IMG/VR virus record: IMGVR_UViG_3300020120_000082
Coordinates: 64,001 to 128,000 of that record
Source: a virus
Taxonomy: Duplodnaviria; Caudoviricetes
Strand: one strand, 5' to 3'
DNA: 64,000 nt
Below, piece after piece: positions 3,423-43,050 of this stretch. How positions within the stretch are numbered: position 1 is the first letter of the stretch; each line of letters starts with the position of its first letter. The notes under the pieces were generated by a model. The model was not told the origin of the DNA. It did not search any database and saw nothing but the letters and a program-made list of their open reading frames with translations. The position numbers were made by a program, and so were the translations under genes.

Positions 3423-3907
3423 GCAGACTTCTCCATTGATCTCCAATACGAAACCCAGGCTTCTTGCTCAGCAAGCTCATCACACAGAACGTTGTATTCC
3501 TGAAAGGCCGAACGATTATTTTCTTTTGAATGCCCACGGATCCAGTTACCATGGATTTGGTGGATCTTTCTAAAATTGTCGATCTCGGTCCACATATCCA
3601 CATGCGCAACTTTCTTCCACTTGCGAGCAATCCACTTGTCTAACCATTCATTGACGCCTTTGACGACATACTGAGCGTCACAATAAAACTCAACCCGGCA
3701 GGGAATAGTCAGTTCCCGCAAACCACCAATCAGGCCCATCAGTTCCATGGTGCTGTTGGTCTCTGGATAGGAATGCCCACTACAGGTCTTCTCCAGAGAT
3801 CCATAGCGCAGAATGGCGCACCAGCCGCCATGATTGGCCCTGGTGCCGTACAAAGAACAAGAACCATCGCAAAATAGCTGTACCAACGGTAATTCCTGCC
3901 GCGTCAT
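3419..3907 (-). CDS. rnhA: Ribonuclease HI
   Basis: Motifs FCDGSC, GGWCAIL, TNSTMEL, YCDAQYV, WIRGH and NVLCDELA match the RNase HI catalytic D/E/D/D pattern. Confidence 0.93.
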   Translation of the reverse strand: MTRQELPLVQLFCDGSCSLYGTRANHGGWCAILRYGSLEKTCSGHSYPETNSTMELMGLIGGLRELTIPCRVEFYCDAQYVVKGVNEWLDKWIARKWKKVAHVDMWTEIDNFRKIHQIHGNWIRGHSKENNRSAFQEYNVLCDELAEQEAWVSYWRSMEKSA

Positions 3908-38677: not shown

Positions 38678-39365
38678 AGTTTCTCCTGTGTCCTATTGGT
38701 AGGTATTGACATGATGTGGTATCATTCTCTCGTTGTTTGAGTGCCTGCACGCACAGTCGCTCAAAAAGCCCATTTAGTCTGGGCATCAGTGACCGTGCGT
38801 GCGGCTCTGGTGCTCATACTAAATGGGCTTTTTGTTTCTCAATCGCATAGTAATTGAGCACATTGCTCCCCTTTCGACCCGCTTGCTGGCAGGATAGAAC
38901 CGGAAGTCCAGCGACGTACAATAAATCCGCCAACTTCCAAAATATTCAACCGTTAAGACACTCCCACAGGTAAACGCGAGAGCGTAGGGTGCTATCAAGA
39001 GCGGGGCAGCCTGGCCCACGGCGCAATGACTGATAGTAAGCGGCGGCTAAAAGCGTGATGCAGAAACGATACTGCATGCCTCGGGTGAGTAGCCTGTAAA
39101 TTACTCCTGCGGTCGGTAAAATCACGGACTCCTCTTGCAAATGGCAAGCCCAATTGCAGGGAGAGTCCGCCTACACCAGCAATCGGTATATGTCCGGGTA
39201 ACCCCAGGCAGCGACTAAACATGAGCTTATGAATGACAAAGTAAAAAAGCAGGTGTTGTTAATTAAAGAGGTGGTGTGCTGAAAGTTTTTCAAATCTGGA
39301 GAGACTCTGATTTCCGAAATCTCTCAATCTGAAAAAACAATTTGAGCCCAAAAATTCGGCGCGGC

Positions 39366-40523
39366 TCATTTCACTTTCAACTCCTGCTCAACCCACAACT
39401 TGTTGTAGCGCTGCATTTCTTCTTCGTTCAGCACCATGTCCCATTCCCAGGCGTCTTCGCATTGTTCGCACACCGGGAAAGTGGTTTCGTCGTACAGATC
39501 CGTGTTCTCAATCAAGCATACTGGGCAAATCCATTTGACTTCGATCATTGATTGGCAATCTCGGCTTTCAACGCTATCCAGGCCTTGAGCGCGAATCGAC
39601 TATCCTGGTCTAACAGAATATTCAAAATGTCGTCGACCAGCTTGCGCGAGATGCTGTAGTAGTTATCAGGATTGCTCTGCTCTTCCAGCAGGATGGCCAT
39701 TTCAAGCTGCCAGTCATCCCAGGTGACACCCATCGACTCCAGGTATATGTTCCAGGCGAGCTTGAATGCGTCCCAATCTTTCCTGGCCCCGCCACGATCC
39801 GTGATGCCATACAGCGGCGCAGTGATGTCGAACTGCTTCTGAATAGCAGCGAATGTTTCAGCAGACATAACATGCGAGTTGTCGGTTTCCATTTTCAGTC
39901 CTCGATCTTCATACCGCCATCAGCGATTATTTTCCTGAATCTCTTGTCGAAATAGATCAGGTCTTCAAAGCGCTGCACTTCGTTAATGTTCAAGTCGATC
40001 TCAAATACCGGCGAATGCATTTTGTTCCATTCTGCGCTGTTTACGCATGGCAGTCCGTCTAAGACGTGTACGATCCACTCGGCCTTTAATCTTAGATTCT
40101 CGTCGTATATGCCGCGGACATCGCACCAGTAGCCCATCTTGATTTGAAACACGGATCTTGGAAGTTGTGGCATGTTTTTCCTTAGCTGAACTGAGCGAAT
40201 TGATAGTTCTTGATCAAATCATCGAACCCAAACGGAGCTTCTGACCGCAGATGCTGAAAAACGTAGTCCCGATCCCAGGTATTTTCAAACAGCCGGAACA
40301 ATATTCCGTCGTCGTTGTCTTCGGCCAGAATCATTGGGCCATCATCATTGCTGTCGCTACTAATCATAAAGAAAAAACCGCCTGGCAATCCACCATGCCA
40401 GCATGATCCGCGAACCATGAATACCTGGTCCCGTCGTTTTCGACTGACATAGGCTTTACGCCACATTTCCCCATCAGGGAAATCTGCTACGTAAGCGTCG
40501 AACGTTTTGTAGTAATTCTTCAC
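39366..40523 (-). other. Four hypothetical genes (39366-39548, 39545-39892, 39895-40173, 40182-40523)
   Basis: Contiguous ORFs with RBS-like sequences. Confidence 0.65.
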
Positions 40524-40549
40524 GCCTGATCTCCTATAGTGTTTCCCAG

Positions 40550-40573
40550 TACGCCTGGCTGGATTCGAACCAG
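40550..40573 (-). pseudogene. tRNA 3' fragment (T-arm plus acceptor strand)
   Basis: CTGG-TTCGAAT-CCAG-C-CAGGCGT-A; the acceptor strand is complementary to the 5' fragment at 41149. Confidence 0.7.
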
Positions 40574-40580
40574 ATTAAAG

Positions 40581-40653
40581 TGCCCCAGACAGGGATTGAA
40601 CCTGCATCCTTGGAATTAGAAGTTCCACGCTCATCCAATTGAGCTACTGGGGC
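40581..40653 (-). tRNA. tRNA-Arg(TCT)
   Basis: GCCCCAG acceptor/CTGGGGC, D-arm GCTC..GAGC, anticodon arm TGGAA-CTTCTAA-TTCCA, T-arm GCAGG-TTCAATC-CCTGT; no encoded CCA. Confidence 0.93.
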
Positions 40654-40661
40654 GGATTATT

Positions 40662-41087
40662 TCACTTGGATTTGAAGCCGTTATATTTACCGCTACAATT
40701 TCTAGAGCAAAATGCTCGCTTGTAGCCTTTTGCCTTCGGGGAGTTCTTGGAGCTTCTACTGAATTCATTTCCGCAATTTGCACATACGAGTTTAATCAGA
40801 TCTCCATTTGGGAATCTTATTTTCATATGATACCTTTGGTGCTCACCCCTTGTTTTTATTTCAAGATTCGATGGTCTGTTATCGTGCTTGTTCTCGTTTT
40901 TGTGGTGAACATCCTCATATGGCTCAAGCATTCTTTGAATCTTATTTTCAAGTACGACTCGGTGAGCCAGTACATATCCATGCTCATTTGCTCTTGGATG
41001 TTCGGGAACAACAGCGTATAAATACTTCCCCTTCTTGACAATTTTTCGTATGATCCAGTTATTCCACATAGTATTTGCAACTCCCAT
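40662..41087 (-). CDS. HNH homing endonuclease
   Basis: HPRANEHGYVLAHRVV...VHHKNENKHDNRPSNL; C-terminal CANC...FCSRNC. Confidence 0.9.
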   Translation of the reverse strand: MGVANTMWNNWIIRKIVKKGKYLYAVVPEHPRANEHGYVLAHRVVLENKIQRMLEPYEDVHHKNENKHDNRPSNLEIKTRGEHQRYHMKIRFPNGDLIKLVCANCGNEFSRSSKNSPKAKGYKRAFCSRNCSGKYNGFKSK

Positions 41088-41119
41088 TGCTCTATCCTAC
41101 AACGGGAATTGCAAATACA

Positions 41120-41149
41120 CAACACTCTTTCCAACTGAGTTACAGGCGC
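41120..41149 (-). pseudogene. tRNA 5' fragment (acceptor strand plus D-arm)
   Basis: GCGCCTG-TA-ACTC-AGTTGGAAA-GAGT. Confidence 0.7.
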
Positions 41150-41654
41150 AGATCGGGCTGTTGCCAGCCCGGAATTTCTATTCCCCGACGCTTGGCCGAA
41201 CGGGATCGTGTTCCGGTTCTTTGTCCAAATTTTTCTTCCACCACCACATTCGCTGTTCCCGGTCAGTGCCATCGGCATAGGCGAACCAGGATACAACGCA
41301 GATCTCTTCTTCATTCTCTTCAACTACTCGATAAAACTTGCCTTCGCGCTTGACGTAGTAATCTATTTTCATTCTTGCTCCATATCCAGCTTTCTGTTCC
41401 AAAGCTCATTCCAAGCTTTATCGCATAGATCAGCCGCAAAACCAGCCTGATTTTCATCCAGGCCCAGGCCGCGGAAAAACTCGCTTTGTGTGCTAGAAGA
41501 AACACCGCCTGAAATAAACGCCATCAATACTTTTGCACCCTCTTTGGGATCAACATCGCTTGAGTTTCGGATAATCTCCAGGGTGGTGCCATGACGATAG
41601 GTGTAAAGCGTCAGGCCTAGAGTCAGTCTGTTTGTGTTGTTTTCTTTGCGAACG

Positions 41655-42104
41655 CTATCCATAGATATGCTCCCGGATATAAGCCTGAGCCTTCAAATAG
41701 CGCTCAAGCTGTGATTGTCGTTCCGGAATGCCGCGGCAGTGCATGATGTTGTCATCCAGATCAGCCAGCTTGACTTGGGCCGAGTCGGGGTTGATAACAA
41801 TTCTGGGGATGAAATGTTCCAGGTAATTCTCCCCAGGCAATCTCGTTAGCGTGACAACGCCAGCGGGGATCCGGATACCGAAAAGCTGCATCAAGAGAAT
41901 GCTGTTCACATAGCGCGATTGATCTTCCAGGATGTCATGCAGCAGGCCAATAATTTGCAGAGTTTCATCCTGGAAGTGACAGGCCACGCGAAACAGATGG
42001 TTGATATATGGCTCATCTCCGTTCGGATTGTGATAAATCTGATCGCGATGAACGCGAGATGCGAACTCGTAAGCAAAAACTGCCCCAGGCAAAATATTAG
42101 CCAT
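41655..42104 (-). CDS. HD-domain hydrolase, RelA/SpoT (p)ppGpp-hydrolase/Mesh1-like
   Basis: HRDQ...EPYINHLFRVA...GLLHDILED...LTR...VKLADLDDN. Confidence 0.85.
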   Translation of the reverse strand: MANILPGAVFAYEFASRVHRDQIYHNPNGDEPYINHLFRVACHFQDETLQIIGLLHDILEDQSRYVNSILLMQLFGIRIPAGVVTLTRLPGENYLEHFIPRIVINPDSAQVKLADLDDNIMHCRGIPERQSQLERYLKAQAYIREHIYG

Positions 42105-42444
42105 GTCGTTTCATGTCCCAGTAATAGCCCAGCAAGAAACCGCCAATGCAGCTTAGGCCAAATGACGCCATGGCCAGGGTTGCTACCAGACCACCGCTCA
42201 GATAGAACCCCAGTGCGCCAACCAGAAAACAGGCGATCACAAACATGGCTGCAACCCGTTCGCGCTTGCGTTTATCAGTCTCGATGCTCATGGCTGTTGT
42301 GCTCCAGACTCCGAATGTCATCTCGCAGCCGGTCTAGCTGATCTTCCAGTTCGTAAATATACTCAGCCAGCTTGAGATTGATTTCCAGGCGCTCGGCCAG
42401 TTCAGCAACCAGTTCCGCTTTGGTTTTAAGCCAGCCCGGTGTGC

Positions 42445-43050
42445 TCATTTTCCGTCATTCCAGTGCAGACTCTTGGGATCGAACGATGCAACAAAGTATG
42501 GATAGTAATCACTCCAATTCCCGGTCCCAATGGCCATGATCTCTTTGCCATTCTTGGCATCTGCAAAGCTGGCCATTGCTTCGTCTTTGTCTATGGACAC
42601 CATCACTTTCGTCCGCCTGAACATATTGAGTACCGGCTTGCTCTCGATTTCTATCTCGCCCAGAGATGATCGGTAGCCGTCTTCTTCATTCTCGTAAGCG
42701 GCATAAATGACACCATCCAGCACAAAACGAATGACATCTGCTCCTTTGTGGTTTTCACCGAGATAATCCACACCGCTCAACCAATGGGTTCCAACCAGGT
42801 CTTTCAGTTCGACGGTATTTTTTGGTTCATACTTAACAGCCAACCGGCTCTTGACTAGATCAGCTATCTTGCCTTCAGCCACAATTTCTTGCGAGTCCAG
42901 GCTGACAACCTGATAAGAGTCGTTGGCACTTTGTGAGCCCAGGCCTGTTTGATCCAGTGCGTCCCATGCCGAATCGTAGAAACCGCCCAGATCTCTCCAA
43001 CCGCCGTGGGGATGGCGGCTATTGAATTCGAACAGAATATAGTTGCGCAT
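42445..43050 (-). CDS. Phage hypothetical protein
   Basis: 201 aa, two apparent modules (PHGGWRD; EDGYRS...DYYP). Confidence 0.75.
   Translation of the reverse strand: MRNYILFEFNSRHPHGGWRDLGGFYDSAWDALDQTGLGSQSANDSYQVVSLDSQEIVAEGKIADLVKSRLAVKYEPKNTVELKDLVGTHWLSGVDYLGENHKGADVIRFVLDGVIYAAYENEEDGYRSSLGEIEIESKPVLNMFRRTKVMVSIDKDEAMASFADAKNGKEIMAIGTGNWSDYYPYFVASFDPKSLHWNDGK

Follow-up and report, generated by a model that had tools for sequence, protein, structure and literature searches.

Genomes are believed to tolerate homing endonuclease genes either in intergenic positions or within self-splicing introns and inteins. Integrative elements insert into tRNA genes and restore their 3' end, and an intron in the tRNA-fMet gene of Synechocystis encodes the endonuclease I-SspI. 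Group I introns of tRNA genes occupy the anticodon loop (Williams 2020). In phage T4, the free-standing GIY-YIG homing endonuclease SegB is encoded in the tRNA gene cluster (PMC2330249). Its gene lies between genes, and the enzyme recognises a T-loop motif (PMC2330249). SegB is co-inherited with the neighbouring tRNA genes in mixed infections, and tRNA processing is believed to limit its expression (PMC2330249). The ribosome-binding sites of T4 endonuclease genes are sequestered in hairpins (PMC2330249; reviewed in PMC2988022), an arrangement of both intron-encoded and free-standing endonuclease genes for which PMC2330249 cites Gott et al. 1988.

We found an HNH endonuclease gene and a complete tRNA-Arg(UCU) gene lying between the two ends of another tRNA gene. 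The locus is part of a 64,000-nt stretch of phage DNA (hereafter the window), which comprises bases 64001-128000 of a 138.8-kb IMG/VR record (88% complete, GC 51%). We think that an intron-free homing cassette, made up of a leader hairpin, the HNH gene and a spare tRNA-Arg(UCU), probably occupies a resident Arg-type tRNA gene. On the minus strand, from 41180 to 40520, a GNRA hairpin, the 5' tRNA fragment, a 20-bp hairpin, the HNH_3 gene, tRNA-Arg(UCU), a spacer, the 3' tRNA fragment and a flank follow one another:

41172-41153, minus strand: GNRA-tetraloop hairpin at the left end of the block common to the relative L010 (from folding)
41149-41118, minus strand: 5' remnant of the resident Arg-type tRNA gene, tRNA positions 1-31 (read from the sequence)
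41118-41071, minus strand: leader hairpin of 20 bp, whose 3' arm holds the Shine-Dalgarno sequence of the HNH gene (41085-41081) and ends 1 nt before the AUG
41069-40662, minus strand: HNH_3 homing-endonuclease gene, 135 aa, with a C-terminal four-cysteine zinc ribbon (Pfam, PHROG)
40653-40581, minus strand: intact canonical tRNA-Arg(UCU), the spare copy (ARAGORN Arg(tct); Rfam tRNA 67.8 bits)
40580-40574, minus strand: 7-nt spacer from the spare tRNA to the 3' remnant, the right-hand junction (read from the sequence)
40573-40550, minus strand: 3' remnant of the resident tRNA gene, with the T arm from position 50, the acceptor strand and the discriminator A
40549-40524, minus strand: resident downstream flank with the ribosome-binding site of the next gene, kept in relatives (from alignment)

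The original prediction had placed a 5' tRNA piece at 41149-41124 and a 3' piece at 40573-40550 around an HNH gene and a complete tRNA-Arg(TCT). The 3' piece is present exactly there, the 5' piece extends further, to 41118, and Pfam, PHROG, ARAGORN and Rfam agree on the two genes in between. The 5' remnant consists of the acceptor strand (41149-41143), the dinucleotide TA, the D arm (41140-41124), position 26 and a 5-nt strand of the anticodon stem. The 3' remnant consists of a 4-bp T stem with a canonical T loop (40573-40559), an extra stem base (40558), the acceptor strand (40557-40551) and the discriminator A (40550). As claimed, the two acceptor strands (GCGCCTG/CAGGCGT) pair over 7 bp, and all seven pairs form with G1-U72 included. 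The outer anticodon arm, described as missing, is lost only in part: its 5' stem strand is kept, and positions 35-49 alone are absent, which removes the anticodon loop, the 3' strand of the anticodon stem and the variable loop. Since T-stem position 49 is mismatched, we place the right-hand breakpoint at 49/50. The spacer is similar to that after the spare tRNA of L010, with the same first four bases, and the GNRA hairpin is also kept in L010, where its loop is GAAA rather than GCAA.

The halves do not cover all tRNA positions and thus differ from archaeal-type split or trans-spliced tRNA genes. The best-supported reading is that, without positions 35-49, they are dead relics that formerly served as homology arms. 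The annotation of the locus becomes a single functional tRNA-Arg, an HNH gene of 135 aa and a pair of dead tRNA fragments. As with an integrative element, a tRNA gene is occupied by the putative mobile element and the tRNA function is preserved. Unlike an integrative element, it has no integrase and no direct repeat. It brings along a complete, independent tRNA gene, and the two ends of the older gene persist as fragments that do not overlap. Between the halves and next to them, the ORFs encode only the HNH protein and small unknown proteins, which does not fit an integrase-mediated insertion.

A chance origin of the outer pair was rejected by a deliberately loose, genome-wide scan for split tRNAs (5' piece, T arm and a 7/7 acceptor match). 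The scan matched the inner tRNA, the outer pair and one other place, and 200 one-strand shuffles gave 14 matches. The 3' piece has an 11-nt T-loop core that is found only once in the 138.8-kb genome. The additional match of the scan, at 132150-132191, falls inside a second tRNA cluster of this genome (131781-132415, outside the window) with Val(UAC), Ser(UGA) and Ser(CGA), and could be another tRNA fragment.

Judged by sequence similarity, the phage has no close cultured relative: a DNA search of 50,697 phage records with the locus gave no match, and the closest isolate-phage helicases are at most 33% identical to its helicase. IMG/VR searches with the flank proteins and the helicase found no close relatives either. 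The HD-protein loci L002-L007 were rejected as relatives, being too distant and without the cassette. The 113-aa neighbour protein has no homologue besides its own copy. A JGI contig of 2.6 kb (L008) carries an identical locus.

In a scan of prokaryote genomes, with one genome for each species, nine tRNAs matched the outer acceptor stem and T loop. All those readable carry a UCU or CCU anticodon loop, that is, they are tRNA-Arg species. The tRNA-Arg(UCU) of a Desulfobacteraceae genome (L084) has a 3' end identical to that of the outer gene, including G1-U72 and the discriminator A. Because all readable tRNAs with the outer acceptor stem are tRNA-Arg, the outer gene is Arg-type, in agreement with the Arg-like identity proposed from its first bases. 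The 7/7 acceptor match and the Arg-only stem also count against the possibility, raised with the prediction, that the halves derive from two different tRNAs, and these sequence features support an origin of both halves from one Arg-type tRNA gene. Exact-pattern scans of viral and metagenome contigs, made with the 5' piece or with a pattern for an intact tRNA that unites both halves, gave no match, and the syntenic contigs likewise contain no intact outer tRNA. Because no relative with an intact outer tRNA was found, the empty site is one that we infer.

The HNH ORF matches Pfam PF13392 (HNH_3) with 35.3 bits (cutoff 24.8; E 9e-9) and 15 PHROG HNH families. It was first listed as 141 aa long, and because its homologues start at the second ATG (41069), we assign it 135 aa. 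The ten residues invariant in 20 homologues (H55, H56, N64, N68, H77, H81, C96, C99, C121 and C125) are all present in the window protein, which thus has both the HNH catalytic motif and the metal-binding cysteines. We did not find a solved structure related to it by sequence. The ORF is a compositional outlier, as is the cassette: its GC content is 39.7% against 46-49% in the neighbour genes, its GC3 is 41% against 51-61%, and six of its 11 arginine codons are AGA. Like segB, this is a selfish nuclease gene among phage tRNA genes, with tRNA-gene DNA as the putative target. Unlike SegB, the enzyme is an HNH_3 protein with a zinc ribbon, encoded inside a destroyed tRNA gene together with an isoacceptor replacement. 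Only HNH families match it, not the GIY-YIG domain of SegB; by analogy, the enzyme may work like SegB without being a member of that family.

The leader hairpin resembles those of the T4 endonuclease genes, in that a stable helix covers the Shine-Dalgarno sequence, ends beside the start codon and is conserved with compensatory changes. Its minimum-free-energy helix is 20 bp long in the window (z = -6.0) and 18 bp in L010 (z = -5.5), and the compensatory changes are between these two. The corresponding hairpins of L017 and L023 cover the Shine-Dalgarno sequence or the start codon, and that of L023 is significant (z = -3.8), whereas that of L017 is not (z = -1.3). By burying the ribosome-binding site, the hairpin would keep the translation of the HNH gene low. 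No promoter was identified at the window locus.

The inner tRNA scores 67.8 bits against an Rfam gathering score of 29, and it is the sole match of both ARAGORN and Rfam at the locus. It is also the only tRNA-Arg that ARAGORN finds in the phage genome. Its orthologue in L010 scores 65.9 bits. Since the anticodon loop of the spare tRNA is uninterrupted, its immunity to the enzyme is an assumption on our part.

We then compared the locus with its relatives. L010 contains the whole block of hairpin, 5' remnant, leader hairpin, HNH gene (72% identical) and canonical tRNA-Arg(UCU) in a different tRNA array. The DNA similarity between the window and L010 starts abruptly at window position 41179, and the genes upstream are unrelated. 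The array of L010 continues after the block with Gly(UCC), a second hairpin, Arg(CCU) and Ile(UAU), and a 3' partner for the 5' remnant is not present in this locus. A fragment of L010 was considered as a second tRNA remnant and rejected, as it is a homologue of the hairpin that precedes tRNA-Arg(CCT) in L087 and L088. L087 is an 80.7-kb contig with synteny to window positions 40167-35078. It carries Arg(CCU)-Met(CAU) without an HNH gene, followed by the same downstream flank, and L088, a syntenic relative as well, carries Arg(CCU)-Ile(UAU) without an HNH gene before this flank. A four-locus alignment shows that the flank is conserved in the window, L010, L087 and L088, and that the 3' fragment of the window is colinear with the 3' end of the last array tRNA in the other three. 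Thus, at a conserved site, the HNH gene is found in the window and L010 and not in L087 or L088, so the cassette is present or absent among relatives. The relatives lacking the HNH gene, which had been suggested as a check, do have a tRNA array at this place, contrary to the outcome that would have spoken against an insertion, but the intact outer tRNA expected there was not found.

The HNH-less contig also shares an ORF-poor island with the window. This island (window 38830-39200), 1.3 kb downstream of the locus, is conserved at L087:5400-5770, with six-frame matches of 70-88% identity in several frames, which suggests by sequence a conserved non-coding element rather than a gene. RNA ligase genes adjoin the tRNA arrays that host the window-type HNH family in L087 (1228-2820) and L011 (4791-8032), beside RlaP in the former and a SpoU methylase in the latter. 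This suggests that tRNA repair or modification modules settle at the same hot spot as the HNH genes.

We surveyed about 60 loci of the HNH family, examining both flanks of the ORF. Its link with tRNA-Arg(UCU) is seen in more than 25 metagenomic loci, and a canonical or re-shaped tRNA-Arg(UCU) adjoins the HNH gene in more than 20. At 13 loci, a 5' tRNA piece upstream and a 3' piece downstream of the HNH gene pair over 7/7 positions, and in at least 10 of these the HNH gene is inside a group I intron at U34|C35. In-silico joining of the exons at U34|C35 gave an ARAGORN tRNA-Arg(tct) in 10 loci, with U at position -1 and G at the omega position. The inserts are 418-651 nt long and end in G, as group I introns do. 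Rfam Intron_gpI detects L035 with 52.8 bits, which reaches the gathering score, and L067 with 32.8 bits (E 1e-4), and the other intron-type loci have the same core motifs. With these two as positive controls, no Rfam group I signal (RF00028) was found in window 39500-42500 even at E <= 10, and none of the window junctions tried gave a tRNA-Arg upon joining of the flanks. A group I intron in the window was thus rejected. In an unrooted tree, the window HNH belongs to a clade of eight loci (support 100/98), none of which has a ribozyme, and all 13 intron-type sequences are in the other major clade (96/89). In five of the other seven loci of the window clade, tRNA-Arg(UCU) is just 3' of the HNH gene. 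The exceptions are L011, which has tRNA-Leu(UAA) there, and L020, whose contig ends at the HNH stop codon. Like the tRNA group I introns, the window element occupies the anticodon loop, and its HNH relatives are in introns at loop position 3 of tRNA-Arg(UCU). Unlike these introns, it has no ribozyme and cannot be spliced to a tRNA, and a second gene compensates.

The occupation of the outer gene can be accounted for by homing. In a mixed infection, the HNH enzyme would cut cassette-free tRNA-Arg DNA near the anticodon region. Repair of the break would use the genome that bears the cassette as template, the tRNA halves and their flanks would provide the homology, and the nuclease gene and the spare tRNA would be copied in together. 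The spare tRNA would compensate for the destroyed gene, so that splicing would not be needed. The cleavage specificity, the homing and the immunity of the spare copy are put forward here by analogy with established homing-endonuclease biology. The insertion of a nuclease into a resident tRNA-Arg gene along with a replacement copy, the core of the original prediction, agrees with the single Arg-type origin of the halves, the tie of the HNH family to tRNA-Arg(UCU), the outlying GC content and the HNH-less relatives L087 and L088; a relative with the intact outer tRNA was looked for in the pattern scans and the syntenic contigs and not found. We also counted it against the cassette that L010 keeps the 5' remnant without a 3' partner.

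This feature of L010 also shows that a 5' remnant can occur without a partner, which speaks for an origin of the two fragments from different genes. A deletion in an L010-like array, from just past the spare tRNA into the T arm of the last tRNA, would leave a 3' remnant exactly where the last array tRNA ends in L010, L087 and L088, as is the case in the window, and the acceptor match would be coincidental. We consider this very unlikely, as the match is 7/7 with G1-U72 and the discriminator A as in the natural tRNA-Arg(UCU) of L084, all readable tRNAs with this stem are tRNA-Arg, and the last tRNAs of the relatives are Ile or Met species with unrelated stems. The conservation of the 5' remnant between the window and L010 could also mean that the outer pieces still function as RNA. 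The prediction had offered the alternative that the halves pair and frame the inner transcript for processing. In our version of it, the outer acceptor strands and T arm would form a tRNA-like minihelix that serves RNase P and 3' processing enzymes as a mark for defining or limiting the HNH mRNA. The minimum-free-energy and centroid folds of the 602-nt RNA are indeed closed by the outer acceptor helix, with the outer T hairpin and the inner cloverleaf, and tRNA processing has been proposed to limit the expression of segB and of the endonuclease genes that phage T5 has in tRNA clusters (PMC2330249). Such a fold is a thermodynamic potential only. The frame is thermodynamically possible, but it is not conserved, as L010 lacks the 3' partner and the remnants differ in extent at other cassette loci, and we regard it as the least likely of the explanations.

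A degenerate group I intron deserves somewhat more weight, though it too is unlikely. On this account, the outer gene would have been a tRNA-Arg(UCU) gene with an intron that carried this HNH gene. Its ribozyme core would later have disappeared in place together with exon positions 35-49, and a tRNA-Arg gene free of introns would have been taken up as a substitute. The same HNH family does reside in a U34|C35 intron at 10 loci, with Intron_gpI scores of 52.8 bits in L035 and 32.8 bits in L067. Moreover, the 5' remnant of the window reaches the intron-insertion position, and the TTGCAA motif after it resembles the first intron bases of L043, L055, L025 and L027. This account is opposed by the lack of any group I signal in the window at E <= 10 and by the placement of its HNH in the ribozyme-free clade (100/98), separate from the intron clade (96/89), although the tree is unrooted. 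The junctions also vary among cassette loci, with the remnant of L038 ending in the D arm.

If the homing cassette is the correct reading, the HNH family appears to use a third solution beside intergenic sites and self-splicing elements, in that it destroys an essential-type gene and delivers the replacement in the same cassette. The cassette would be a second, intron-free way to occupy a tRNA gene, next to the intron form. This would help to explain why the tRNA arrays of phages turn over rapidly and contain many tRNA fragments, and the specificity of an HNH enzyme could be mapped with a natural system in which target and immune tRNA genes are paired. A further link would be to an unusual tRNA-Arg architecture, overlooked by current annotation tools. 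A literature search, incomplete in its coverage, found no description of an HNH-plus-spare-tRNA cassette.

This unusual architecture is a re-wired tRNA-Arg, which adjoins HNH genes of the window's family in eight loci:

L017:4391-4467: re-wired tRNA-Arg
L021:1585-1658: re-wired tRNA-Arg
L022:1006-1082: re-wired tRNA-Arg
L032:1343-1419: re-wired tRNA-Arg
L033:48-124: re-wired tRNA-Arg
L047:1525-1600: re-wired tRNA-Arg
L050:668-743: re-wired tRNA-Arg
L080:275-351, minus strand: re-wired tRNA-Arg

In these tRNAs, the acceptor strand is followed by TA and a strand of 3-4 nt; next come the anticodon hairpin, the complement of that strand, a variable region with a D-loop-like motif that contains GG, and finally the T arm. 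The anticodon arm is here flanked by the strands of the D stem. Compensatory changes occur in 3/3 pairs of the new helix, and in the structure overall 96.6% of the cells are paired, compared with 66% in shuffles. ARAGORN misses all eight, and Rfam scores that of L017 with 39.7 bits. The L080 tRNA is an Arg(ACG) version of the shape in the tRNA array of a MAG. Tentatively, and with more doubt than confidence, we suggest that one HNH lineage may have two interchangeable lifestyles at the anticodon loop of tRNA-Arg(UCU), an intron and a ribozyme-free cassette with a spare tRNA, and that pressure from the nuclease may have diverged the spare tRNAs, up to the re-wired shape.

Some other loci of the survey have features of their own. 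L038 (1066-1578) is a cassette form with a direct duplication: a flank and tRNA positions 1-24 precede the HNH gene, which is followed by the same flank and a complete tRNA-Arg(UCU) with the same acceptor stem and a changed D arm. The closest HNH proteins of cultured phages, 33-46% identical to that of the window, are from phiKZ, Salmonella PHA46, E. coli Bas93 and GX15bay. No split tRNA-Arg was found at these matches; tRNA-like fragments are nearby in phiKZ and GX15bay. In phiKZ (L075; NC_004629.1 267920-270667), the distantly related HNH gene PHIKZ296 is just after an annotated tRNA-Asn, and a fragment like a T arm plus acceptor strand is about 100 nt 3' of it. The best match in the cultured collection (46% identity) is in Caudovirales GX15bay (L009; MK557849.1 11527-11868). 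This HNH gene is unannotated; in its place the annotation has a hypothetical CDS on the other strand. Upstream of the gene is a 5' tRNA fragment that resembles class II, and tRNA-His and tRNA-Trp are downstream. In L035, a stretch of 750 nt contains two group I introns (2254-2495 and 2760-2995), both of which reach the gathering score of Rfam, and a partial tmRNA match is at the end of this locus; L030 has a drum RNA match (3544-3653) within a tRNA array.
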